Shown piece by piece: positions 9,619 to 38,568 of a stretch of 64,000 bases of DNA. This stretch comes from a virus (Duplodnaviria > Heunggongvirae > Uroviricota > Caudoviricetes): the IMG/VR virus record IMGVR_UViG_3300046359_000179, positions 11,944 through 75,943 of that record; one strand, written 5' to 3'. Position 1 is the stretch's first letter. Each line of letters starts with the position of its first letter. The translations under genes and the position numbers were made by a program. The notes under the pieces are model-generated. The model saw only the letters and a program-made list of their open reading frames with translations, searched no databases and was not told the DNA's origin.

Positions 9619-10170
9619 TTAATCTTCATGCAACGCAAAGACATAATCATGAAGACCGTTAATCTTTTTACAAATTGACTGACTTTCAACAATTAAAGCT
9701 TTCTCATAATTATTGTAAAGCTCAACTGGAACAATGTCAGTTATTTCATGCGTTTTTAAATCAATCATTTTTACAGGCCACTGATCGCGCAATTTGTCCC
9801 ATAGCCCGATTGTTTCTCTCGACTGTTCAACGTCTGAAATCAAGGCGAAGTTTAGAGTGTTGTATATAAACCGATATAGGTTTACTATAATTCCTCTCCT
9901 CCTATAGTTTGGGGAACACCATGAGCGCTTGACCATTAGTACTGACTTGTTTGAAGGCAGGTTTAAATCATCTATTGTTGTTAAAAGTAGCGCTGCAATT
10001 ATGCTATCATCCTTTTTCACGATGAAAACTTTAATATCCCCAGATGATCCAAGTTCAATTGTATAATCTTGGAGATAGTCGAGGCACACGATTTTAAAAT
10101 TAGTAATTTTGTTTAAGTCAAATCCCAAATTAGGTTGACTTACAACTCGTGCAATCTCAGATAATTTCAT
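9619..10170 (-). CDS. hypothetical protein, divergent paralog of family A
   Basis: RRRGIIVNLYRFIYNTLNFALISDVEQSRETIGLWDKL aligns with the family-A C-terminal block. Confidence 0.5.
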   Translation of the reverse strand: MKLSEIARVVSQPNLGFDLNKITNFKIVCLDYLQDYTIELGSSGDIKVFIVKKDDSIIAALLLTTIDDLNLPSNKSVLMVKRSWCSPNYRRRGIIVNLYRFIYNTLNFALISDVEQSRETIGLWDKLRDQWPVKMIDLKTHEITDIVPVELYNNYEKALIVESQSICKKINGLHDYVFALHED

Positions 10171-10379
10171 AATTAGAAATTTTAAAATGGGATAAATTCA
10201 CCGACATTCAATCCGACCAGACTAAAATACGGAACAAGCTTGCCAAACCGTATCAGCCCAGTAAGTTGCCAAGCTTATTCAACGGTCTCTGCGCAATCTA
10301 TGGTAGTTATTTTTCCGTTACGTAATTTCCGCTTTTTGACTCACTTGAATTTTTTGCATTTCAAACCTTTAAAAATTGA

Positions 10380-10493
10380 ACTATTTTGATGTAAGCACTA
10401 ATAACGTTGTCGCTTCATTGTGCTGGGAAATATCTTTCCAAATTTGGTCATCATCGAGATTTTCAGCATTATAATTACGCGGTTCTATAAAAA
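10380..10493 (-). pseudogene. C-terminal remnant of the family-A gene disrupted by the IS (..NYNAENLDDDQIWKDISQHNEATTLLVLTSK*)
   Basis: Matches the C-terminus of ORF 6459..7064 (..YNGENIDEFFIWNNSEHKKEPTSLLVLTSQ*); no start; overlaps the tnpB stop. Confidence 0.6.
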
Positions 10494-10500
10494 TCTATAA
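10380..10500 (-). ncRNA. predicted TnpB omegaRNA (reRNA) region: scaffold overlapping the tnpB 3' end plus flank-derived guide
   Basis: Placement inferred from established IS200/605/607 TnpB biology; 300-bp non-coding stretch downstream of tnpB; not folded. Confidence 0.3.
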
Positions 10501-11710
10501 AACTCACTAAACGCTTCACAGAAGCTGCCTTTGGAAGAACTTCCTTAGGTCTTACTGCCCCTCCACGTCTGTACTCGGTTAATTCAGCCGAGGTCATGTC
10601 ATAAAGGTCCTTTACACCTTCATTTAAAATATTGATAGCCGCATTTAAGTCGCGATCATGGCTTGAGCCGCATATTGGGCATGTCCATTCTCTTATGGAT
10701 AAATCCATCGTTTCCATTTTATGGCCGCAGCAAGAACACGTCTTACTCGATGGGAACCAAGTATCTATCTTATGAAATGTGCGGCCATACCACCTACTTT
10801 TGTATTCCAGCATTGAAATAAAAGTGGACCAACTTGCATCAAGTATGGATTTTGCCAAACTATGATTCTTAACCATGTTTTTAACTTTTAGAGTTTCAGT
10901 ACAAATAACATCGTAATTTTCTATTAACCAACTCGACAGGTTATGGTAAATGAACTTGCGCTGATTTACAATATCCCTATGGATTTTCGCAACTTTGATT
11001 TTCTGTTTATTGTACCTTTTAGAACCCTTTGTTTTTCTGCTTAAATGCTGCTGTGACCGTTTTAGTTTAGATTGGTTTTCTCTGAACCATCTTGGATTGG
11101 AAATTTGCGTACCATCACTTAAGATGAGCAAGTTTTTCAATCCGAGATCAATACCGATTGAGCGACCAGTATTTTGTTTCAATTCTATTTCTTCTTCAAC
11201 TAAAATTGAAACAAAATATTGCCCACTTGGATTTTTAGAAATTGTGACAGATTTTGGTTTACCAGTAAAAGGTCTATCTATGATTACTTTTACTGGAGAC
11301 ATTTTTGGAAATTTAATAAAACCTGCTTTAATTTGTTCAAATTTTTCTAAATGCATTGAAGCCGCAGGAATCCTAAATGATTCATTGCCACCCCGCTTTT
11401 TAAATTTTGGTCTTCCCAGTTTAGCTTTACGGTTTTTAGAGAAAAATTGCTTTTTGGTTTCATCAAAATCGATTCGTTTTTGCTGCAAGGCATAACTAAT
11501 AGCATCTTTAAGCCATGGAAAGTTCTCATCATCTTTCAAAATCTTCTCATTCATTGGTCGGTTTGGGCCTTCTTTTGAAAAAGAATTAAAATTGGCAACT
11601 AACTGATTCCAAATGAAGCGAACACATCCAAAATTTTGGAGAAGAAATTTCTCTTGCTTATTATTAGGATATATTCGGTACTTAAAAGCCTTAAGAACTG
11701 TATTTGTCAT
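10475..11710 (-). CDS. tnpB: TnpB (OrfB_IS605, RuvC-like RNA-guided nuclease with C-terminal Zn ribbon)
   Basis: N-terminal KYRIYPNNKQ..FGCVRFIWNQ; RuvC motifs IGIDLGLKNL and ICTETLKVKNM; CSCCGH..CPICG zinc ribbon; ..DRDLNAAINI. Confidence 0.85.
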   Translation of the reverse strand: MTNTVLKAFKYRIYPNNKQEKFLLQNFGCVRFIWNQLVANFNSFSKEGPNRPMNEKILKDDENFPWLKDAISYALQQKRIDFDETKKQFFSKNRKAKLGRPKFKKRGGNESFRIPAASMHLEKFEQIKAGFIKFPKMSPVKVIIDRPFTGKPKSVTISKNPSGQYFVSILVEEEIELKQNTGRSIGIDLGLKNLLILSDGTQISNPRWFRENQSKLKRSQQHLSRKTKGSKRYNKQKIKVAKIHRDIVNQRKFIYHNLSSWLIENYDVICTETLKVKNMVKNHSLAKSILDASWSTFISMLEYKSRWYGRTFHKIDTWFPSSKTCSCCGHKMETMDLSIREWTCPICGSSHDRDLNAAINILNEGVKDLYDMTSAELTEYRRGGAVRPKEVLPKAASVKRLVSFIDFYRTA

Positions 11711-12303
11711 TTTTCTGAATCGTTAGCTAATTCTTGAACCAATTTTTCCGTATTCCGTTTGCTGCGGCGCTGTCCATAAATTCTTGCGCAAAAAGATGTA
11801 ATGACGGACACAAAATCCTGAACAATGTCTTCTTTATCTGACTCTACATTATTCACTACATCGATTTCAATGCCATTAGAATTTAATAGCTGTTCAATAT
11901 AATTGAAACCGAATCTAGTCAGCCGATCCTTATGTTCAACTACTAATTTAGTAAAATCCTGTTCCTTAAGAAGCTTTTCCAGTTTTGGCCTCTTATCATT
12001 TAGTCCAGATCCAAATTCTGTAACGACTTTAGCAACTTTGTAACCTCTAGCGTTACAATATGAAATCAACCTTTCGGATTGAGTCTCAAGATTAGATTTA
12101 TTTGCAGTCGAAGAAACACGACAATAAATCACTACGCGTTCTTCTTCCTTGGCCTTTATACCAAGGAATTTGTTGTAAGTTTCAATATCAACATAATTCA
12201 TTGAACCAATTTTATGAAATTGTATTTTTCCAGCCTTCTTCCAATTCCACAGCGTCATCCTGGTTACACCAAGATCTGCAGCAAATTTTTTAAGTTTAAT
12301 CAT
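11707..12303 (-). CDS. tnpA: IS607-type TnpA (serine recombinase with N-terminal MerR-like HTH)
   Basis: HTH FAADLGVTRMTLWNW; resolvase core VVIYCRVSS..NLETQ; 4-nt overlap with tnpB. Confidence 0.8.
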   Translation of the reverse strand: MIKLKKFAADLGVTRMTLWNWKKAGKIQFHKIGSMNYVDIETYNKFLGIKAKEEERVVIYCRVSSTANKSNLETQSERLISYCNARGYKVAKVVTEFGSGLNDKRPKLEKLLKEQDFTKLVVEHKDRLTRFGFNYIEQLLNSNGIEIDVVNNVESDKEDIVQDFVSVITSFCARIYGQRRSKRNTEKLVQELANDSEK

Positions 12304-20149: not shown

Positions 20150-21469
20150 TTATTCTCCAATTGGTTCAACAAATTTATCATCACGAACATGATTATACAC
20201 TGGGAATCGCAGAGAGAAAAACTTTGCGTCTTTCGCCTTAGACATTTCTTGATAGGTAATCACCGCAGTTTGATGCTTATATTTTGAATCGAAATTCTCA
20301 GCGATATCAGCGCGAACTTCATCGCTGAAACCTGATCCGACATTACAGCGGAATTCACGACCATGCTCGTCTCGACCTTCGACTGTGATGCCACCACAAG
20401 TGCCCTGGAGACGCGACTTAGGCTTGCCTTGATACCAAGCAACGATACGCGCGTCAACATCATAAAAGCGCTTAATTTTGCACCAATCCATAGATCGGTC
20501 CCACTGATAAACAGCATCCCAGTTCTTTAGGATTAAACCCTCTTGACCATGAACATCAATGACTTCGTTGCAGTACGCGACCATATCTGCATAACTTTTG
20601 ACTTCCCGCCCATTGGTGATAAGAATCTTTTTGCAACCTGCTTCGTCAATAATTTTTGAAAGAGCTATTCGATTTTGACGCATGGTAATCTTTGTAGATT
20701 GGGCCAGCCAATCATTCAAAGGCATCAAGAAAAAAGCATGGAATCGCAAATTGCCTTTTGCAACATCATTACCTGCTTTTTTGGAATTCATGGTTTCAGT
20801 GAAGTCTGAAGCAAATGCTTCGCCGTCAAGGACAAAGTCATAACCGACATTATCACGCATCTTCTTCATGTCTTCATCAAAGATGCCTTCAAGGTGTTCA
20901 GAAATTTTTCCGCTACGAGCACGGTATTCTACAGGCTGATTGAGGCGAACAAATGCGATGGACCTGTTACCGTCCATTTTCCAATCTCCATGGGCGGGGT
21001 ACGTTACCTTCTCAAGGAACTCTTCTGGGCTATCACACTTGTCTGCAAGCATAATTTCGAATACTGGAATAATTTCCTGCTTCCATGCAGAATTAGCGGT
21101 ATCTGCAGAAAATCCTGCTTTCAAATCCTTGTCAAAAATTCGCGCAATATATTCTTGCGCATGTTCGGGAAATTTTGAAATAGATTGCGTGACTGCTGCT
21201 CGAGCCGCATCTCCAGTAATTTGACGCGTTGCAAGCTTATTAAGCACTTCAAAAAAGTCTGAATAATTTACATCAGACATCTTGACATCTTGTGCAATTG
21301 AAGGCATCTCAAACTTCTTAACGCCGAATACCTGATAGGGATCCAAAGCTGCACAAATCAATTGTTTTGCAATTTCGTCAGCTTTTTCGAGTGCTTCCTT
21401 AATCACTTTTTTGGTTCCTGAACCAGAAGCAGTTTCACACGCTTTAATAACTTCTATAAAATTACTCAT
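20150..21469 (-). CDS. ATP-dependent DNA ligase (T4 gp30-like)
   Basis: KMDGNR adenylation motif (KxDG); 439 aa. Confidence 0.75.
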   Translation of the reverse strand: MSNFIEVIKACETASGSGTKKVIKEALEKADEIAKQLICAALDPYQVFGVKKFEMPSIAQDVKMSDVNYSDFFEVLNKLATRQITGDAARAAVTQSISKFPEHAQEYIARIFDKDLKAGFSADTANSAWKQEIIPVFEIMLADKCDSPEEFLEKVTYPAHGDWKMDGNRSIAFVRLNQPVEYRARSGKISEHLEGIFDEDMKKMRDNVGYDFVLDGEAFASDFTETMNSKKAGNDVAKGNLRFHAFFLMPLNDWLAQSTKITMRQNRIALSKIIDEAGCKKILITNGREVKSYADMVAYCNEVIDVHGQEGLILKNWDAVYQWDRSMDWCKIKRFYDVDARIVAWYQGKPKSRLQGTCGGITVEGRDEHGREFRCNVGSGFSDEVRADIAENFDSKYKHQTAVITYQEMSKAKDAKFFSLRFPVYNHVRDDKFVEPIGE

Positions 21470-21567: not shown

Positions 21568-21984
21568 ATGGCTAAAAATCAAGCACCGACCTTGTGCGTT
21601 GAAGATACGGGGGAAGCATCTTACGTGTCCCTCTTGGAATATAAAAGGGAACATTATCTCTGCGTTATTGATAGGATTTCATCTGATGAAATTACGGCAT
21701 ACGTGCTAGATTATGCCGAAGCTGAAAATATACCAATTCAACAATTTCTAAGCGTAGCAAATCTTTGGTTTTATGGAGCCTCTGATGATCACCCGCTATC
21801 TGTAGAGCTCGCAGCAAAAGGCCTTACAGACGTGCTTTCGCCAATCTATAAGACCTTTGATGCTAACTATGTTTCACGTATAATTGGCACTACTTTTAAT
21901 CATGCTAATACGGAATCGAAAATAAAACGAAGAAAAGCAATTCCTGTAGTCGAAGGAACGCCAGTTCGACTTAAAAAGCGGTGA
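21568..21984 (+). CDS. hypothetical protein (plus strand)
   Basis: 138-aa ORF with AAGGAA-type RBS upstream. Confidence 0.4.
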   Translation: MAKNQAPTLCVEDTGEASYVSLLEYKREHYLCVIDRISSDEITAYVLDYAEAENIPIQQFLSVANLWFYGASDDHPLSVELAAKGLTDVLSPIYKTFDANYVSRIIGTTFNHANTESKIKRRKAIPVVEGTPVRLKKR

Positions 21985-22996
21985 GATTGTAAAGACGCTT
22001 TAGGTGTGACAACTTAAACATATTAAATTGGTCAGTCAATTCTTGAGTCTTTTCCTTCAAAACTGATTTAGCAACAGCTTCATCTACTTCTTCGAAACGG
22101 GCATCAAGATAGGCCAAAGCCCCTTCAATTGTTTCTTTTCCCTCTTTTACAGAGCGCAGATAATCAGAATTAGGTCGTGGGAATATTAGCGCTCCGGTTC
22201 TTGAAATCTCAACAATCTGTTCAACAATGCGAATTGCATGGCTCAACGCTTTCCAATCTGCATGCTGGCCCTCAAAGCTTTTAACGCGTTCCCCGTATGA
22301 ATCTAGCGTATTCAACAGTGAACTGTAAACTTGCCACCAAGTATTAGACATCAAAAACTTTGGAGAAATAACTTGAATGCCAGGAGCGGTTTCAATTCCT
22401 CCTTTAGCATTGAGAATTTCTATACGTGTGACGTTTGGAAACTTGAGGATTTTGTCAATCAGCTCAGAGGACTCAGGAGAATCAAGCCGGGCTTTACGCA
22501 TTACTTCAGTCTCTGAACCAAAGTAATCTTTGATCGTATCGACAACCTTCTTCAATGAAGTGTATCGATCATTTTTAAGGCCGTAAGCTTTCGACTGCGA
22601 GATAGCATAACCGACCATCTTCTTCACAGAATTGGTCATATAATGATCAACCATCTCCCTCATCATTTGAACTTCTGAAGGCTTAACACGTTCTGATTCG
22701 CCATTAAGAACGGCAAATGCAACTTCCAATGCGTAAGTTTGCCCGTTAAAGAAATCATCAAAAAATACCTGAAGCGGCAAGTATTCGGTTTCTGATTCCC
22801 CAGCCTGCACTTTATCGCTCTGTGAACGCCCTTCGGGCTTTTCCTTGCGATTAGTTACCTTCTTATTAAGCAGCAGATCATCAAGCTTTGGAAGAACTAC
22901 GGCCTTATAGTCATAGTCAGATTCTGGTCCGAAAGTTCCATAAAGACGAGAGCCACTAGGTACCGTAAACAGTGTCGTTTCTTTTTCAGCTTTCAT
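21971..22996 (-). CDS. Pol-beta-superfamily nucleotidyltransferase
   Basis: GSRLYGTFGPESDYDYKAVV fits the hG[GS]x(9-13)Dh[DE]h signature. Confidence 0.5.
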   Translation of the reverse strand: MKAEKETTLFTVPSGSRLYGTFGPESDYDYKAVVLPKLDDLLLNKKVTNRKEKPEGRSQSDKVQAGESETEYLPLQVFFDDFFNGQTYALEVAFAVLNGESERVKPSEVQMMREMVDHYMTNSVKKMVGYAISQSKAYGLKNDRYTSLKKVVDTIKDYFGSETEVMRKARLDSPESSELIDKILKFPNVTRIEILNAKGGIETAPGIQVISPKFLMSNTWWQVYSSLLNTLDSYGERVKSFEGQHADWKALSHAIRIVEQIVEISRTGALIFPRPNSDYLRSVKEGKETIEGALAYLDARFEEVDEAVAKSVLKEKTQELTDQFNMFKLSHLKRLYNLTAF

Positions 22997-24092
22997 TATT
23001 CATCTCCTGTCGAATGGCAGTAATCATTGCCAAACTAATTTGGCGTCCAAGTTCTTTACCAGCAAAATTTGCTACGAGGTTGATTATATCAAGATTTGAC
23101 GTGATTGAAGCGAATTTTCTCCAATCATGTGCTGAAAAAAGCAAGTTATTTTGTTGTATCGGCCAAAGTGCCGCCAAAACATTTAGGGCACAGTTTGCGT
23201 GCGTGCTAATAGCATTCGTAGAACGAGTCTTTACTAGAGCATAAACAACACCTTCTGCTGAATAGTCAGCAGAAGTAAAAATTTGCAAAGCATTTAAAGC
23301 ACCGTTAACATCATTTCCAAAAACCTTTGCTGCATTTGGCGCCATAACTGAAGAAAAAGTCGCAACTAAAATCTCACTCGTTTCCAAGTTACACTTACGT
23401 GCAGCTTCAAAATGTTTTTTCATTTCAAGAAGATGTGAACTACTTATATCCCCAAAAACATCTTTGAAAAAACGCACGTTCTGAAATACGCCAAGTTTGT
23501 AAAGAAGATCAACGAATCGGCCAAAGTCTGAACCATCGTCAAGGATGACTTTCTCAAACTCTTTTACAAATCGCTCTTTTGAAATGGTATCCATTTCACC
23601 AGATTTAACAATCTGCTTTGACAATTCCATGGTTTCATCAGCAACAGAAAATTCAGAATAGCGAGCATAAAATCTAGCAAGTCGAACAACGCGCAAAGGA
23701 TCTTCAGAAAATGCTAAAGATGTATGGCGAAGAATTTTTGCTTTGATGTCTTTCACGCCGCCATATGGATCAATGTATTCCCCGTTTACGGGGTTGAAAG
23801 CTATCGAGTTGGTTGTAAAATCCCGACGCTTAAGGTCTGATTCGATTGTGACGTTTTCAGTCTCTACAGAAAATCCTGTATGACCAACACCAGCCTTTTG
23901 CTCAGTTCTAGCCAAAGCCCATTCATCCCCTGTTTCGGGATGGAGGAACACTGGAAATGATGCCCCAACTTGCTTAAAGCCGAGTCGAATCATTTCTTCA
24001 GTCGAAGACCCGACTACGACCCAATCAACATCCTTCGGCTCGCGCCCCATGAGTTGATCGCGAACGGCGCCTCCGACTTTATAAACATCCAT
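22986..24092 (-). CDS. tRNA nucleotidyltransferase (class II CCA-adding enzyme / poly(A) polymerase family)
   Basis: N-terminal VYKVGGAVRDQLMGREPKDVDWVV head-domain signature; 368 aa. Confidence 0.7.
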   Translation of the reverse strand: MDVYKVGGAVRDQLMGREPKDVDWVVVGSSTEEMIRLGFKQVGASFPVFLHPETGDEWALARTEQKAGVGHTGFSVETENVTIESDLKRRDFTTNSIAFNPVNGEYIDPYGGVKDIKAKILRHTSLAFSEDPLRVVRLARFYARYSEFSVADETMELSKQIVKSGEMDTISKERFVKEFEKVILDDGSDFGRFVDLLYKLGVFQNVRFFKDVFGDISSSHLLEMKKHFEAARKCNLETSEILVATFSSVMAPNAAKVFGNDVNGALNALQIFTSADYSAEGVVYALVKTRSTNAISTHANCALNVLAALWPIQQNNLLFSAHDWRKFASITSNLDIINLVANFAGKELGRQISLAMITAIRQEMNNES

Positions 24093-32704: not shown

Positions 32705-33271
32705 ATGAAAATACAGGAAATTTTTGATACTAACGTAGATGTCGAATGGCAGCAAAATGGTAGATTTGAACTAGCATCATTTGTTTATGGTGAAACTTAT
32801 GTAATCCAGATCGAGAAAAAGAAAATACCCAAACTAACGGAATTAAATGGTGCGAAACTGGCTGAAGCTTCATTTTACCGGACCGGAATTGAAGGGGAAA
32901 ACGCTTCGTTCACGACGACTAAGCAAGCAATTGACGTTCCGGTCCGAATTTACGGTGTAGTTTTAAATGCGGTTTCTGAAAAAATTGACGAATATGATGC
33001 GTTTATTTTTACTGCTGAAACAAAGCATTGTAGAACGGCTGAAGAGTTTTCATCAAAAAGGGATATTTATTCTGCAATCGCTGATAGAATAACTAAACGA
33101 ATGCACAACATTTTTTATTATGAACGCTTAACTGAAAATTCAGCGGAGTTTTTAATTACAAAAATTAAGCTATCGGAAGAAACTCAGGATAAAACAAATT
33201 TTAAAAACCCAAGGGCTGAAGCCATAAAAGCATTGAATTTGAAACCTACGGTATTACGTCCTAAATCTTGA
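32705..33271 (+). CDS. hypothetical protein, paralog family B (tandem copy 1)
   Basis: MKIQEIFDT...; 4-nt overlap with the next copy. Confidence 0.6.
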   Translation: MKIQEIFDTNVDVEWQQNGRFELASFVYGETYVIQIEKKKIPKLTELNGAKLAEASFYRTGIEGENASFTTTKQAIDVPVRIYGVVLNAVSEKIDEYDAFIFTAETKHCRTAEEFSSKRDIYSAIADRITKRMHNIFYYERLTENSAEFLITKIKLSEETQDKTNFKNPRAEAIKALNLKPTVLRPKS

Positions 33272-33825
33272 AAATACAAGAAATCTTTGATACGTCTGCG
33301 GATATAGTTTGGCAGCAAAACGGTAGATTTGAACTAGCATCATTTGTGTGCGGTGAAAAATATGTTATTCAGATTGATAGAAAAAATCTAAATCAGTTCC
33401 CAGAATTAAAGCGTTCAAGGGTCGCAGAAATTTCGTTTTTTCGCTATGATGTTGATGATTCTGACGCAGCGCATACTACTGCACGGCAAGACTTAGATGT
33501 GCCCGTTAAAGTTTACGGAATAGTTTTAAATGCTCTATTAAAAAAGATGGAAGAATACGACGCATTCTTTTTCTCCGCGGAAACCAAACATTCGCCAACA
33601 TTAGAAGAATACAAGTCTAAGAAATCAATTTATTTCTGGATTGCCGACCGCGTTTCTAAAAAATTATCAGGCGTAACACTTTATGAATACGAATGCAATG
33701 TTAGCGCACAATTCTTAATAAGCAAAATCAAACTTGCCAAAGAAACACAAAACGCGACCGGCTTTAAAAATGCACTTGCAGAAGCTTTAGCTGCTACCAC
33801 ATTCACTTTTGCAAGCGCCAAATAA
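33268..33825 (+). CDS. hypothetical protein, paralog family B (tandem copy 2)
   Basis: MKIQEIFDT...; roughly 50% identical to copy 1 by eye. Confidence 0.6.
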   Translation: MKIQEIFDTSADIVWQQNGRFELASFVCGEKYVIQIDRKNLNQFPELKRSRVAEISFFRYDVDDSDAAHTTARQDLDVPVKVYGIVLNALLKKMEEYDAFFFSAETKHSPTLEEYKSKKSIYFWIADRVSKKLSGVTLYEYECNVSAQFLISKIKLAKETQNATGFKNALAEALAATTFTFASAK

Positions 33826-33827
33826 TT

Positions 33828-34631
33828 TCAAATTGATAGAAAGGGTATAGGAAACATCGAAGTGAGTCGCAAAGCCGAACAATCTGGAAGATACCCAATA
33901 TCAAGTTCTGAAATTACTGAACGCTTAATAATCGGTGCATGATCCGGCCGATGCTTCTCTGGTATTTTAGAAAGTTGTTCCCGAGAAAGTCTCGAAATAA
34001 CATGTTGCCGTTTTACAAACGTGCCAGATTTAAAATGTAACGGTTCTAAATGCCATGGTTTCCCAATTTCCTGAAGCATGCGTTTTTTCTCTTCGCTGCA
34101 AACACCGTGAAGCTGCTTACTTGAAAAGTGCGCTTGCGCTGCCATAGAAATGCTGTTCTTAATAGCGTCATTCTGTCGCCACAGGAAGTTTAGATATACA
34201 TCTTTTGGCACGACATTCCAAACGCGCGCATCAAAAACGGGAATAGCATCAGCTTTTTCCGGAATGCGTTTACCCAATTCCTTTGCAAAATATGCGCTCG
34301 CCATTCCAGCCATCACAGAACAAAGCTTTTGGTACTTTCCATCGTACCAGTATTGGCGAGTTTCAGTTTGGTCGTTAAACCAATACAAACTGATTTCATC
34401 TGACTGTGTATATCCAAGTTCAGCATTTGTCTTTTCAACCAAATATTTGGTCGTATCAATCATAAGTCGGCTAAGGCGCAAATCATATGGTCGCTTCAAG
34501 CCTTTGGTAAATGTGTGAAACGCTTTGCCATCAAGGCGACACATCAACGGAAGCGTGGCATCACATTTTCTACCGGCTTCTGCCTGTTCATCAGATTTCA
34601 AACGATCACCAAGTTTATCTTCTTTGTTCAT
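33828..34631 (-). CDS. Thg1-like protein (tRNA-His guanylyltransferase family 3'-5' nucleotidyltransferase, TLP)
   Basis: RLDGKAFHTF (D29-region) and YTQSDEISLY (catalytic SDE) motifs characteristic of Thg1/TLP. Confidence 0.65.
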   Translation of the reverse strand: MNKEDKLGDRLKSDEQAEAGRKCDATLPLMCRLDGKAFHTFTKGLKRPYDLRLSRLMIDTTKYLVEKTNAELGYTQSDEISLYWFNDQTETRQYWYDGKYQKLCSVMAGMASAYFAKELGKRIPEKADAIPVFDARVWNVVPKDVYLNFLWRQNDAIKNSISMAAQAHFSSKQLHGVCSEEKKRMLQEIGKPWHLEPLHFKSGTFVKRQHVISRLSREQLSKIPEKHRPDHAPIIKRSVISELDIGYLPDCSALRLTSMFPIPFLSI

Positions 34632-35002
34632 AGTAGGATGAAAATAATTAAAACGTAAGTTAGGGAATGTAGAAACTGATCAAAGCCTAATAGGACCCAG
34701 AACTGTTCGTGGGTTGTAGGTTCATATCCGAGCTTTTTATTGAGATTCATTTTTGCCCAATCAATATGGTAATGAATAAATCCATCTAAAAGCCCCAACA
34801 TAATCGCCATTGGCAAATTAGCAAACCAAATTAAAACAAGATAAGTTCCCCAAGCATGTAAACCAGAATGAATCAACCCGCCAGGATGCCCGTAGGTCCC
34901 CTTGTTTTTGTACTGGTACGGGAATGCCTGCAATGGGAAATCCACAATAAAATGTTTTGAAAATAGTAAAACTAAAACTACTAAAATTTGTTCAGGTGTC
35001 AT
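34628..35002 (-). CDS. small multi-pass membrane protein (DUF3307-like?)
   Basis: 3-4 TM helices; translationally coupled (4-nt overlap) to the Thg1-like gene. Confidence 0.4.
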   Translation of the reverse strand: MTPEQILVVLVLLFSKHFIVDFPLQAFPYQYKNKGTYGHPGGLIHSGLHAWGTYLVLIWFANLPMAIMLGLLDGFIHYHIDWAKMNLNKKLGYEPTTHEQFWVLLGFDQFLHSLTYVLIIFILL

Positions 35003-35072
35003 ATTTCAAAATATTCAGTATTGATGCAGAATTTTTGACATCTCTTCAAAAACCTCATGGCTTACTAGCATT

Positions 35073-35525
35073 TTACTTCCAGTCTAGATCAAGCGGTTCA
35101 GTGTATTCCTGGCCCAGAAGGATCGGGAATGTTATGGGAGGCAAGTTAATCTCATCTCCAGTGAAATTATAACACAGAGAAACATGCGGATGGTAAACCG
35201 GGTAGTCGTAAGTCGCAGAATGTTTTGCCATGAGCTGCAAATGGCGTGCGACAAGTAGCGGGCAGTGAAGTAGTGCAACTAAAGTTTTTGTGCCGTCTTC
35301 GTTAGGGAAGATGGTGAAGTCTTTAAACTCGGCCTCGAACACTGTATCGGGTTCGGCTATGATGTCGTGTTTCTTACGACTATAGATGACTGTAGTATGC
35401 AAAGTGGATGGGCACTCTTCGATGCCAACATCTTTTGCATATGCAAGCAGTTTCTTCTCGGTTTCCGGGAGAACGTACAACCCGACATACGTTCCTTCCG
35501 TATGATAAAGATCTTGTAATTTCAT
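35073..35525 (-). CDS. 2H phosphoesterase (LigT/CPDase-like)
   Basis: Two H-x-T/S-x motifs: HTTV and HVSL, ~80 residues apart in a 150-aa protein. Confidence 0.55.
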   Translation of the reverse strand: MKLQDLYHTEGTYVGLYVLPETEKKLLAYAKDVGIEECPSTLHTTVIYSRKKHDIIAEPDTVFEAEFKDFTIFPNEDGTKTLVALLHCPLLVARHLQLMAKHSATYDYPVYHPHVSLCYNFTGDEINLPPITFPILLGQEYTEPLDLDWK

Positions 35526-35536
35526 TTGCTATTTTC

Positions 35537-36061
35537 CTATTTTAGGTTTTGGTATGTAACATAGATGCCTGGTTGGTCGCCAATTATTTTCCTGCGTTTT
35601 GTCCAATCATCTATGTTTTTTAGCGATTTTAATTGATAGCCCCAAATGTAATCTGCACCAGCAATCGTAACCGAATAATCTTTCAGTTTTCTACCAATTC
35701 CAGAATTTTTATAATCTGGGTGCACAAACAGCCCTATCCCCTCAATGCCGCGTTTTCCTTGAATATCTTTGGCGTATAAGTCAAGATCCGTTGCTGCATC
35801 TTGCGGCATATCCTGTCTTGACAGGAAATACGCCCCAACAACTTTATCCCCATCTTTGACAATTTTTGATATGCGGGGATCAAATACTGAGAGGATTTCC
35901 CTTGCATAATCCCTATCATTATTAACGTGCGGTGCAAATGTTTCGGTTCCTAAATCCAATGCGCCGGCCACATCTTTTTTGTTTGTCGCATCCACGAACG
36001 TGAATTGGAGATGTTCGTTTATTTTTGTAATTCTATATGAATACAATTCCTTAAGTATCAT
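35537..36061 (-). CDS. GNAT family N-acetyltransferase
   Basis: VVGAYFL...GKRGIEGIGLFVHPDYKNSGIGRKL (motif A). Start moved to MILKELY to abut the upstream gene. Confidence 0.5.
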   Translation of the reverse strand: MILKELYSYRITKINEHLQFTFVDATNKKDVAGALDLGTETFAPHVNNDRDYAREILSVFDPRISKIVKDGDKVVGAYFLSRQDMPQDAATDLDLYAKDIQGKRGIEGIGLFVHPDYKNSGIGRKLKDYSVTIAGADYIWGYQLKSLKNIDDWTKRRKIIGDQPGIYVTYQNLK

Positions 36062-36062
36062 T

Positions 36063-36569
36063 TTATTCCTTGGGCTTCTGTGAACTAGCGGGGATATCGG
36101 AATAGCCTTCGCTTCCAACGTATTTATTCCGTTCATAGGCGTCATATTCATGCTGACCTTCAACCCAAGGTCGAGAACCAACTGCAGAATCATCTGAAGC
36201 ATGTGCACCATACTTTGCCATTATAAGCTTTGAGAACCCGTCAATCGATGCAACATAGGAAAGATAGATTGCGAAAATATCCCAAGTCAGTTGACCCTGC
36301 AATGTTAACTTGATCACAATGAACGTGCCAACAATCCCGCCAATCAATTGTAACACTTTTGTGGCAGAAACTTTAGTTCCGTCACGCGTAATCATGTCCA
36401 TCCAATCAAATCGTCTTGCTTGCTGTGCACGATAGACCGCAATCATGAATACGCTAAAAATCAGCACGATGACTGCTGCGTAAATATTAAACGTGAACCC
36501 GAATAAAGTGACCATAGAATCCTGCTGTAACTGTGTTGCGGCTATAACTTCCGCAGGTAAATCGTCCAT
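36063..36569 (-). CDS. membrane protein (2 TM helices)
   Basis: Hydrophobic segments VIVLIFSVFMIAV and IGGIVGTFIVI. Confidence 0.45.
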   Translation of the reverse strand: MDDLPAEVIAATQLQQDSMVTLFGFTFNIYAAVIVLIFSVFMIAVYRAQQARRFDWMDMITRDGTKVSATKVLQLIGGIVGTFIVIKLTLQGQLTWDIFAIYLSYVASIDGFSKLIMAKYGAHASDDSAVGSRPWVEGQHEYDAYERNKYVGSEGYSDIPASSQKPKE

Positions 36570-36665
36570 ATCAGACTCCGTTATTTGTTATTAGATGTGA
36601 GTATTTATTCGCGCGGTTCAAAAAATGTAAATACGTAAAAATTCTCAACACTATAGGAACATAAA

Positions 36666-37322
36666 ATGCTTGAAACTATTTGCGATGTTATGCTTGAAGC
36701 TTACAAAAGAAACTGGATTACTTCGCGTGATGGGAATGTCAGTATTCGCCATCATGATAGAGATCACTTTTACATTACTCCTAGTGGAATCCGTAAACAA
36801 ACTTTGCAGCCAGATCAATTTAAAAAGATTGGCATCACAAGACACCTTAAGTCAGGTACAGGCAAACTAGAGTTTGCCTATGGGTGGGAAGATTTGCCGT
36901 ATACAGATATCAGCAAGAATTTGAAACCAAGTGGAGAACTTCCGCTCCACTTGGGGCTGCAGAAAGAAATGGGTCAACATGTGAATGATGTTAGAGTCGT
37001 CGTCCATGTTCACCCTACTTACTGTATTGCTGCAATGCATGCAGGAATAGATTTAAGTACTATTAGTAAAAACTTCCCCGAGCTCAACAGGTATACTAAG
37101 GTTGCGCCTAATGTTGGAGAGGTCGCTCCCATTTCTGAAGAGTTAGGAACGCAATGCTGTGATAATCTTGGGGTGGATGCGCAGGGTAACATCAAATTTG
37201 ATATTGTGGGCATTAAGGGCCATGGAGTGGTCGCGATTGATACTTCGCCATGGCGCGCATTTGAGCACATAGAGCGAGTTGAACATATTTGTAAAATTGT
37301 TCTTGCGAGTGGCGTCAAGTAG
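36666..37322 (+). CDS. class II aldolase/adducin-family protein
   Basis: DGNVSIR, FYITPSG, VVHVHPTYCIA, GHGVVAIDTS blocks; only plus-strand gene in this region. Confidence 0.6.
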   Translation: MLETICDVMLEAYKRNWITSRDGNVSIRHHDRDHFYITPSGIRKQTLQPDQFKKIGITRHLKSGTGKLEFAYGWEDLPYTDISKNLKPSGELPLHLGLQKEMGQHVNDVRVVVHVHPTYCIAAMHAGIDLSTISKNFPELNRYTKVAPNVGEVAPISEELGTQCCDNLGVDAQGNIKFDIVGIKGHGVVAIDTSPWRAFEHIERVEHICKIVLASGVK

Positions 37323-38568
37323 CCTCTGCCCAATCATAGGCGTAAACCACGCTTTGCCATTCGGTATTGGTTCCATCCCGGTAGTCGATTGTTACAAAAT
37401 AATCGCCACTGATAGAAACCCCCAAACCAAACTGCTCAGTGTAATTGGGGGCTGGAGGCCCGATTATAGTGTCGTTTAGAATCCAATTAGTTCCAGCCCT
37501 GATATAACAGTAAACTGCGCCGCGATACTCGCCTCCAGCGTCATCTCCATAGGCACTAATGATTAATCTGTCAGGAGATAAATCCATAAACTCCCCGAAC
37601 CACGCCCACGGGGATGGATGCGGATTTTCTATACTTGCTTCAAGCACCCAAGAATTTTGCGTCAATCTATAAATTGCTGCGGACCCAGAATTATCTAAAG
37701 AGTTTTCGACACCAAATGGCCACCCAACGCAAATAGCCCCAGCTGACATGGAAACGGCAACCATTATTTGCATCCATTGATAATTGTAAGGATGTGGTGA
37801 AGTAATCGTTTGGTGCAAAATCCAAGAACCGTTTTCAAACTTGTATATTTTTACAACCGGAGTTTCACTATAAACTTGGCCATTTGCTAATGAAGACGGA
37901 TGATTAAGCCCGCCAACAACAATAAAGCCGCCATCTGAGGAAATTGATTTCGGGTTAAATGTTGTTCCGCTTTCATCCGAAATCATGATCGTGTTCGATA
38001 ATGACCAGCTCGCACCAGTTCTGGAGTAATGAAAAATACAGGTTGCTGAAGCATCAAAAAGATCTAAAGACCCAAGAACCACTAGCGAATTTTCTAGTAA
38101 GCTCATTTCCGCGAAATAAGTCGAGTTTGGGTAATTTACTGGGGGCTTAATAGATTGTAATAATCCCCATGTCGGTAAAGTCCTGTCAAACATATGAATG
38201 GCTCGATTAATTGCATCCCCTCCCTGAGATGAAGAATAGATTGCGGCCTGATTGGAATTCAAATTTACGGTTGTTCCAAAGCCTACACGAAAAGCAATAA
38301 CTGGAGGCGGAATCTCTTGATCCAGTGTCCAAGTTCCAGCAACATTTTTATATGCGAACGCCATTCCCGTGTCTTGTGCACCCGTATCATTAAAAGCATT
38401 ACCAATTAGTAGCGTATCGCCAAATACATCAATATGAGTTGCAAATCTATTTTGGAAATTTGTCCCATATGGATTAGTAATTTTGGCGTTAAAATTCCAC
38501 TGCATTGGAACGTTCTTAAAGAAGTAAGAATTTATAAACATTTTTCCCTTTATTGCCAAATTTCCCAA
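37315..38568 (-). CDS. fibre / adhesin protein with FG-GAP-like beta-propeller repeats
   Basis: N-terminus MFINSYFFKN shared with ORF 44140..46356; repeats ending GSAAIY, GAVYCY. Confidence 0.5.
   Translation of the reverse strand: MGNLAIKGKMFINSYFFKNVPMQWNFNAKITNPYGTNFQNRFATHIDVFGDTLLIGNAFNDTGAQDTGMAFAYKNVAGTWTLDQEIPPPVIAFRVGFGTTVNLNSNQAAIYSSSQGGDAINRAIHMFDRTLPTWGLLQSIKPPVNYPNSTYFAEMSLLENSLVVLGSLDLFDASATCIFHYSRTGASWSLSNTIMISDESGTTFNPKSISSDGGFIVVGGLNHPSSLANGQVYSETPVVKIYKFENGSWILHQTITSPHPYNYQWMQIMVAVSMSAGAICVGWPFGVENSLDNSGSAAIYRLTQNSWVLEASIENPHPSPWAWFGEFMDLSPDRLIISAYGDDAGGEYRGAVYCYIRAGTNWILNDTIIGPPAPNYTEQFGLGVSISGDYFVTIDYRDGTNTEWQSVVYAYDWAEAT

Follow-up and report, generated by a model that had tools for sequence, protein, structure and literature searches.

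The question raised by this locus is why a Thg1-like 3'-5' nucleotidyltransferase (Thg1-like protein, TLP) and a 2H phosphodiesterase are encoded in one tight run of genes, and whether the two enzymes work together. The run occupies positions 33828-36569 of a 64,000-nucleotide stretch (the window) of the IMG/VR virus record IMGVR_UViG_3300046359_000179. The window derives from a large uncultivated tRNA-bearing phage, with genes for a ribonucleotide reductase, a DNA ligase, a helicase, a UvsX-like recombinase and tail fibres, and six tRNA genes. The original prediction, made from the sequence of the window, combined the two enzymes into a tRNA-healing system. Our analysis places the 2H protein in the Acb1 family, which acts against the cyclic-oligonucleotide-based anti-phage signalling system (CBASS), and the nucleotidyltransferase among the bacterial-type TLPs. 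The explanation we favour, with a probability of roughly 55%, is that two independently acting enzymes of known kinds are located, together with a conserved membrane protein, in one accessory counter-defence cassette. The interval is filled exactly by five co-directional open reading frames (ORFs), and their packing, motifs and spacing are all as first described:

33828-34631, minus strand: TLP, a Thg1-like 3'-5' nucleotidyltransferase, 267 aa (Pfam Thg1, 1.8e-27; phrog_4717, 3.7e-73)
34628-35002, minus strand: His-rich integral membrane protein of the DUF3307 family, 124 aa (Pfam DUF3307, 2.3e-07; phrog_2470, 4.7e-19)
35073-35525, minus strand: 2H phosphodiesterase of the Acb1 family (T4 gp57B-like), 150 aa (Pfam PF23474 Acb1, 5.7e-30)
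35537-36061, minus strand: probable GNAT acetyltransferase, 174 aa (Pfam Acetyltransf_1, 1.8e-4)
36063-36569, minus strand: small membrane protein, 168 aa (phrog_1322, 1.3e-09)

The stop of the DUF3307 gene overlaps the start of the TLP gene by 4 nt, and a gap of 70 nt separates the Acb1 gene from the DUF3307 gene downstream of it. The cassette is not an assembly artefact, because the identical 267-aa TLP recurs on 15 metagenome contigs, with the same genes in the same order in the six that are shown. A megablast search of positions 33000-37500 against 50,697 phage records gave no match, so the phage is one without a close cultured relative.

The 150-aa protein matches the Pfam family PF23474 ("Anti-CBASS protein Acb1") with 104.4 bits, against a cut-off of 27, and the match covers positions 1-142 of the 144 in the model; no LigT-type match was found in the Pfam search. 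By tblastn, homologues are found in 1420 phage records, among them gene 57B of phage KVP40. The best sequence match in the PDB is the Acb1 protein of phage FBB1 (entry 7T26, 8e-15), and a second viral cyclic-dinucleotide phosphodiesterase (entries 9Q2G and 9Q2Y) is also among the best solved relatives. An AlphaFold2 model, made with database homologues, has a mean predicted local distance difference test score (pLDDT) of 90.1. When this model is compared to known structures with Foldseek, the best match is again FBB1 Acb1 (entries 7T27 and 7T26), with template-modelling (TM) scores of 0.73-0.80 and an E-value of 1.5e-9, while E. coli LigT gives TM-scores of 0.43-0.62 and an E-value of about 2e-2, and other LigT-like and CPDase structures give similar values.

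The two 2H motifs of the protein read LHTTVIYS and HPHVSLCY and contribute a catalytic tetrad made up of H43/T45 and H114/S116. Neither histidine varies among the 13 clade members, and both are kept in 74 of the 75 distinct Acb1 sequences compared, the remaining one having an alignment gap at H43. In FBB1 Acb1, as described by Hobbs et al. (PMC9117128), residues Y12, W74, F107 and W147 stack onto the bases, E141 contacts the adenine, H44, T46, H113 and T115 are catalytic, and a C-terminal lid is present. Residues Y13, F73, Y106/Y108, E143 and W149 of the 150-aa protein are found at nearly the same positions as Y12, W74, F107, E141 and W147, an equivalence judged by position and conservation, the N-terminal part being without a direct alignment to FBB1. 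The lid tryptophan is absent in a minority of clade members. Given the full-length Pfam match, the best match to FBB1 Acb1 in both sequence and fold, the stacking residues and the C-terminal tryptophan lid, the 150-aa protein is assigned, by sequence and predicted structure, to the Acb1 (T4 gp57B) family.

The protein has the compact 2H fold of about 150 aa seen in Acb1 (FBB1, entries 7T26/7T27; T4 57B), with the HxT/HxT(S) tetrad, the aromatic stacking residues, the adenine-contacting glutamate and the tryptophan lid. However, it is only 28-37% identical to characterised or T4-like Acb1 proteins, its second catalytic motif is HxS where that of FBB1 Acb1 is HxT, and its gene is located between those of the conserved membrane protein and the TLP, whereas the KVP40 Acb1 gene lies beside the 57A tail-fibre chaperone gene. 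With LigT and the CPDases (E. coli LigT, the CPD domain of Trl1) it has the 2H superfamily fold and two HxT/S motifs in common, but it is about 30 residues shorter than LigT, carries the Acb1-type lid and is matched in fold with an E-value of about 2e-2, against 1e-9 for Acb1. The fold and the paired motifs that were first read from the sequence are thus retained, while the LigT/CPDase identity is replaced by that of Acb1. A LigT/CPDase-type healer of RNA ends was rejected as a candidate on the missing Pfam LigT match, the far weaker fold match and the failure to find a ligase or kinase of the required kind among the ORFs of the window of at least 120 aa.

The characterised activity of the Acb1 family is the degradation of CBASS cyclic oligonucleotides. 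Catalysis proceeds via a 2',3'-cyclic phosphate intermediate, and the pocket takes only cyclic di- or trinucleotides (PMC9117128). Altered pocket residues in the Acb1 proteins linked to a TLP were considered and ruled out: at 24 catalytic and ligand positions, residues occur with the same frequencies in TLP-linked and unlinked Acb1 proteins, so there is no sign of a change of substrate in the former.

The 267-aa protein scores 96 bits against the Pfam Thg1 model, for which the cut-off is 29.2. Its best solved relative is the TLP of Bacillus thuringiensis (entry 4KGK), with an E-value of 3.3e-37 over residues 5-208, while eukaryotic Thg1 structures give values from 4e-9 (Candida Thg1) to 6e-5. 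The translation contains the motifs RLDGKAFH and QSDEISLY, and residues D34-G35 and S77-D78-E79, which include the three metal-binding carboxylates D34, D78 and E79, are invariant in 15 homologues. Where Candida Thg1 reads DCHINNLYN, the window TLP reads DAIKNSISM. It therefore does not contain HINNLYN, which we take to be the telling motif of eukaryotic tRNA-His-specific Thg1. Because the B. thuringiensis protein is its closest solved relative, KNSISM stands in for HINNLYN and the DG and SDE residues are invariant, the 267-aa protein is, as far as its sequence can tell, a bona fide bacterial-type TLP, and the family membership with both carboxylate motifs that had been proposed is upheld.

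The window TLP and the B. thuringiensis enzyme have about 200 alignable residues, the DG and SDE carboxylates and a WRQxDxxKNS motif in common. Templated 3'-5' repair of 5'-truncated tRNA is the activity reported for bacterial TLPs (PMC3061083, PMC3701042, PMC4820378), with biochemical demonstration in the first two of these papers, and the templated 3'-5' addition to 5'-truncated tRNA described in PMC3061083 would be expected of the window TLP. Unlike the bacterial proteins, the window TLP is encoded by a phage and ends in roughly 60 additional residues (IPEKHRP...) that are conserved within the phage clade. Its neighbours are Acb1 and membrane proteins, whereas bacterial Thg1 operons are reported to contain PNK, Macro and RNA-ligase genes (PMC2904730). 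In the close TLP homologues P0082, P0093, P0102 and P0115 an unrelated, conserved helical extension of about 65-95 aa (…CLSGEAVxEDIxxFIxLWH…) is present at the C-terminus; homologue P0119 has an N-terminal extension and an internal insertion instead. No Acb1-TLP fusion of the Rosetta-stone kind is found among these longer homologues.

The distribution of the two genes argues that they act independently. Two samples of IMG/VR loci were collected, one of 80 TLP loci (39-63% identity) from an alignment-based scan, a single-sequence scan with the TLP having given no match, and one of 80 Acb1 loci. In 70 of the 80 TLP loci there is no Acb1 within 10 kb, and 60 of the 80 Acb1 loci contain no TLP within 8 kb, the other 20 having one within that distance. 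Isolate phages with a TLP are mainly phages of Bacillus, Caulobacter and Mycobacterium, and also of Prevotella, while those with an Acb1 are mainly enterobacterial T4-like phages. Since the two genes are thus largely found in different isolate host groups, neither enzyme needs the other.

Relatives in which the TLP has been replaced point the same way. Loci L093 and L094, to which Acb1 homologues with 45-50% identity led, show synteny to the clade of the window and share a glutaredoxin, the membrane protein (66% identity), Acb1, a dCMP deaminase, a pol III fragment and a clamp loader. At 6474-7756 of L093 and 6473-7755 of L094, a 169-aa ORF and a Peptidase_S11/beta-lactamase-like gene are located where the window has the DUF3307 and TLP genes, and no TLP is found within 6 kb of Acb1 in either locus; L096 resembles them. 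The place downstream of Acb1 is therefore a slot into which accessory genes are swapped.

The five genes had been considered one unit, which the comparison does not support. The GNAT gene is present only in the lineage of the window itself and in none of the other 11 clade loci, and a DUF3307 gene sits in the gap between Acb1 and TLP in only 3 of the 12; both are later, lineage-specific insertions. The conserved unit is a three-gene core, formed by the 168-aa membrane protein, Acb1 and TLP, with two insertions, and not a five-gene operon.

The close association of TLP and Acb1 was also seen when relatives were followed outwards from the window. In relatives with TLP identities of 82, 67 and 64%, one of them on a 339-kb jumbo-phage contig, Acb1 is located directly upstream of the TLP with at most one small gene between. 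In an iterated search with hidden Markov models, Acb1 is directly upstream in all loci with a TLP identity of at least 57%, while loci with lower identity have no Acb1 within 10 kb, apart from one exception at 7 kb. In six of the clade loci nothing intervenes among the three core genes. In a diverse group the TLP lies 3.5-6.5 kb upstream of Acb1, with thymidylate synthase and dihydrofolate reductase genes between them in L115, the one locus annotated; in L022 the separation is 7 kb. When pairwise identities are compared, TLP and Acb1 sort into the same four deep groups.

Several of these comparisons weigh against independent action of the two enzymes. By neighbour clustering, all 12 clade loci keep the order membrane protein, Acb1, TLP, with identities that range from 58 to 82% for the TLP and from 41 to 83% for Acb1; the next most conserved neighbour, a glutaredoxin, is present in only seven. 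In several of the 12 loci the stop of the Acb1 gene directly meets the start of the TLP gene or overlaps it. In L149 and L150 the two genes adjoin in the opposite order, TLP then Acb1, with a 12-nt gap, and in two further deep groups they are 3.5-7 kb apart. The activities of both proteins are, moreover, predicted from sequence, and we know of no defence system that truncates the 5' ends of tRNAs. The recurrence of TLP with Acb1 is more than we would expect for unrelated cargo and leaves room for functional cooperation. The pairing was rightly regarded as no accident, being found in 12 of 12 clade loci and again in three other deep groups. The search for co-occurrence that had been suggested thus gave an adjacency that is conserved and recurrent, but most loci of either gene are without the partner.

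In the explanation we favour, the Acb1-type protein would cut the 3'-5' bond next to an adenosine of CBASS-type cyclic oligonucleotides, via a 2',3'-cyclic phosphate intermediate, and this cleavage would silence CBASS-type effectors. The TLP would, by homology, activate the 5' end of a 5'-truncated tRNA with ATP or GTP and then, with the 3' strand as its template, add back in the 3'-5' direction the acceptor-stem nucleotides that had been lost. Along with the CCA-adding and RlaP-like enzymes encoded 10 kb away, it would keep host and phage tRNAs usable. The three core genes are probably co-transcribed; promoter and terminator scans of the cassette gave signals at or below shuffled expectation and are uninformative on an operon. 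The two enzymes would act on different substrates, neither feeding the other, and their linkage would reflect that accessory and counter-defence genes cluster, are inherited as a block and accept insertions. Searches with PADLOC and NCBIfam gave no match for any of the five cassette proteins. In another Acb1 locus, L092 (6001-8131), a gene for a Tad2-like protein (an anti-Thoeris sponge) lies at a distance of 1.4 kb from Acb1, with Thy1 and dUTPase genes around them, on a contig with T4-like markers (T4_Y16D and SegE GIY-YIG matches); this locus is an example of anti-defence gene clustering.

The part of this explanation that concerns tRNA ends draws on the company of the TLP, in the window and elsewhere. 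A CCA-adding enzyme and tRNA genes had been reported from the window and were both found, the former in tandem with a second nucleotidyltransferase:

21971-22996, minus strand: RlaP-like nucleotidyltransferase (Pfam RlaP, 5.4e-07)
22986-24092, minus strand: CCA-adding enzyme (Pfam PolyA_pol, 3.1e-20; NCBIfam CCA addition/repair protein, 7e-78)

The two genes overlap by 11 nt and are located about 10 kb from the TLP gene. Two calcineurin-like phosphoesterases are encoded in the window as well. The match of the CCA-adding enzyme to the 409-position model for the multifunctional CCA addition/repair protein is confined to the N-terminal 188 residues, and the C-terminal half of the enzyme may therefore be different. 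The relative L009, a jumbo phage, encodes one 724-aa product (9758-11932) that matches PolyA_pol and, faintly, RlaP; its gene lies 1 kb downstream of the TLP. In Vibrio phage D69, one cluster verified with Pfam contains a CCA-adding enzyme, DUF3307, RlaP, TLP, an Rnl1-type RNA ligase and Pnkp. An OB-fold RNA ligase gene adjoins the TLP gene in five IMG/VR loci, and in phage GAP32 an RlaP enzyme is encoded 3 kb from the TLP. The D69 repair cluster, the RNA-ligase neighbours, the RlaP gene of GAP32 and the CCA and RlaP genes of the window and L009, taken together, lend good support by association to a role of the TLP in maintaining tRNA ends. The window resembles T4 Pnkp/Rnl-type clusters, here represented by D69, in having a TLP, a CCA-adding enzyme, an RlaP-like gene and DUF3307. 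It differs in that no Pnkp or RNA ligase was found in its 64 kb and its CCA and RlaP genes are 10 kb away from the TLP; conversely, there is no Acb1 within 6 kb on either side of the D69 TLP.

Some further TLP loci are of interest in their own right. In Fusobacterium phage Fnu1 (107506-108330, H90), the TLP gene directly adjoins one that carries the annotation HipA-family toxin. Kinases of the HipA type act on aminoacyl-tRNA synthetases, and the Fnu1 neighbourhood may be another translation-related conflict context. In L150 (5974-7982), and also in L149, a 76-aa TLP-like fragment and an opposite-strand GIY-YIG homing-endonuclease gene are located just upstream of the full-length TLP, which suggests homing-endonuclease activity at this locus.

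The alternative that survives best, although we consider it unlikely, is that the TLP does housekeeping for the tRNAs of the phage itself (5' quality control, addition of G-1 to phage tRNA-His, or repair of 5' mis-processing) and that its synteny with Acb1 is meaningless. The phage has at least six tRNA genes and a CCA-adding enzyme, a tRNA-His gene is located directly upstream of the TLP in L049, and the slot after Acb1 is variable in relatives. The four lineage groups, which are the same in the TLP-first and Acb1-first samples, are what vertical co-inheritance predicts. However, the acceptor stems of the six window tRNAs are fully paired, so no 5' editing is needed by them, and 5' editing of these tRNAs was rejected as the role of the TLP. 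Tracking of tRNA-His genes by the TLP for G-1 addition was likewise rejected as a general explanation, tRNA-His making up only 2 of the 234 tRNAs in the fetched loci. The TLP of D69 is accompanied by the damage-repair enzymes Pnkp and Rnl1, and the occurrence of the TLP-Acb1 adjacency in two orders speaks against pure inheritance. Two of the window tRNAs called by ARAGORN are of doubtful isotype: a tRNA-Ser(GCT) of 77 nt at 5334-5410 has no long variable arm, which a tRNA-Ser is expected to carry, and a tRNA-Phe(GAA) of 86 nt at 7749-7834 has an extra arm.

A broader idea, which we regard as doubtful, is that Acb1-type 2H enzymes and phage TLPs cooperate in some form, either with a branch of Acb1 healing 2',3'-cyclic phosphate RNA ends for repair by TLP and CCA-adding enzymes, or with the TLP taking part in the cyclic-oligonucleotide arms race. 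It is conceivable because the pair is adjacent over deep divergence and occurs in the opposite order, beside an RNA ligase, in a second lineage, where genes for an RNA ligase, a NUDIX protein and a GIY-YIG endonuclease are located upstream of the L149/L150 pair.

The specific tRNA-healing pathway of the original prediction is improbable. In it, a host tRNA nuclease would leave 2',3'-cyclic phosphate ends for the 2H enzyme to open, with the TLP rebuilding the 5' strand and the CCA and RlaP enzymes the 3' end. The conserved and sometimes overlapping adjacency of TLP and Acb1, the independent adjacency beside an RNA ligase in L150 and the presence of TLPs within classic repair clusters of other phages are all consistent with such a pathway. 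So are the CCA and RlaP enzymes of the window, found 1 kb from the TLP in L009, and the partial match of the window CCA enzyme to the multifunctional repair model. Acb1 catalysis itself passes through a 2',3'-cyclic phosphate intermediate. Nevertheless, in sequence, fold, pocket residues and lid the protein is nearest to Acb1 and not to LigT or CPDase, and the Acb1 pocket fits only cyclic di- and trinucleotides (PMC9117128), with no shift of residues in the TLP-linked proteins. The Acb1 product is a 3'-phosphate, for which a phosphatase would still be required. Searches of the ORFs of 120 aa or more in the 64-kb window found neither a polynucleotide kinase nor an RNA ligase, the sole ligase (20150-21469) being an ATP-dependent DNA ligase. 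Relatives drop the TLP and keep Acb1, and a 2H neighbour is missing from most phage TLP loci. This pathway is weakened most by the assignment of the 2H protein to the Acb1 family and by the finding that the TLP is dispensable.

That the TLP is engaged in nucleotide-signal warfare, making or extending oligonucleotides (decoys that offset the liability of Acb1 towards Panoptes) or acting on linear Acb1 products, is far-fetched: the Thg1 palm is homologous to GGDEF, Cas10 and mCpol (PMC2904730, PMC12657218), Acb1 can trigger Panoptes when overexpressed and TLP-Acb1 proximity is recurrent, but the TLP aligns with that of B. thuringiensis (residues 5-208, E-value 3e-37) with all TLP motifs kept, such bacterial TLPs are, by the biochemistry reported in PMC3061083 and PMC3701042, templated tRNA 5'-repair enzymes, TLP neighbours elsewhere are RNA repair genes and not signalling genes, and deletion of acb1 in T4 left Panoptes defence unaffected.

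Phage Thg1-like proteins have been annotated since 2010, and we know of none that has been tested. Each of the two proteins is a new and divergent member of a known family. In the searchable literature no paper links Thg1-like proteins and Acb1 functionally, Thg1 and Acb1 being mentioned together in only two works and solely for palm-domain homology, and neither the three-gene core (membrane protein, Acb1, TLP) nor the repeated closeness of TLP and Acb1 seems to have been reported. The earlier remark that no characterised phage system with a Thg1-like plus 2H pairing is known holds for the pairing, but the Thg1-like genes of jumbo phages have already been described as putative 5' tRNA repair enzymes (PMC2904730, PMC7824862). 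The association of TLP and Acb1 falls short of demonstrating a system.

The third member of the core, the 168-aa protein, contains three hydrophobic stretches that are read as membrane helices. It is encoded upstream of Acb1 in all 12 clade loci and also in the TLP-less L093, L094 and L096; in all, 14 relatives conserve it. It is 58-77% identical among distant relatives in which Acb1 is 41-50% identical. No match to it was found by tblastn against isolate phages. Its role may be essential and separate from that of Acb1, perhaps holin-like.

The 174-aa ORF is a marginal but plausible GNAT acetyltransferase by profile search, with an Acetyltransf_1 match of 22.2 bits (cut-off 20.7, E-value 1.8e-4) and a KNSGIG acetyl-CoA loop. 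Its start at 36061 agrees with independent metagenome gene calls, while the longest ORF, to 36211, would overlap the neighbouring gene. DUF3307 is found in 259 phage records, a good number of them from phages of Salmonella and Escherichia about 110 kb in size. In unrelated phages (D69, RsoM2USA, L049, L008 and L063) its gene is repeatedly a neighbour of TLP or CCA genes at a distance of a few kb, and in Caulobacter jumbo phages it is located about 9 kb from the TLP, which suggests a possible link of DUF3307 to tRNA biology. The homologues in three of these loci are placed as follows:

L091 (Vibrio phage D69), 1882-2268: DUF3307 homologue
L175 (RsoM2USA), 4036-4437: DUF3307 homologue
L049, 13127-13528: DUF3307 homologue

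On the opposite strand next to the cassette, the class II aldolase is present as noted before:

36666-37322, plus strand: class II aldolase/epimerase-like gene, flanking (Pfam Aldolase_II, 5.9e-27)

It scores under every NCBIfam equivalog cut-off and is found only in L007 and the lineage of the window; it is flanking cargo, outside the conserved core. On the other side, two tandem paralogues of 188 and 185 aa (32705-33271 and 33268-33825, plus strand), both beginning MKIQEIFDT, converge on the cassette and have no Pfam match. In the relative L007, two ORFs of comparable length (191 and 185 aa) lie at the corresponding place on the opposite strand. Further away in the window, at 10475-12303, an IS200/IS605-type transposase-like gene (phrog_506, 1.7e-128) adjoins a serine resolvase-domain gene beside a tRNA-Asn/Met/Glu cluster, an arrangement that suggests a mobile element within the genome of the phage. 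Large transposase-like ORFs of a similar kind are close to the TLP in several other loci (cluster 9).

The reassignment of the 2H gene to Acb1 turns what was proposed as a new repair pathway into the pairing of an anti-CBASS enzyme with an uncharacterised tRNA-end repair enzyme. The recurrence of TLPs with Acb1, RNA ligase, Pnkp and CCA genes is a concrete lead towards phage TLPs as counter-defence genes, and the diverged Acb1 branch, with a small set of contigs, is flagged for testing the idea. If Acb1 and TLP were indeed to cooperate, the Acb1 family would have a broader role than is known so far.

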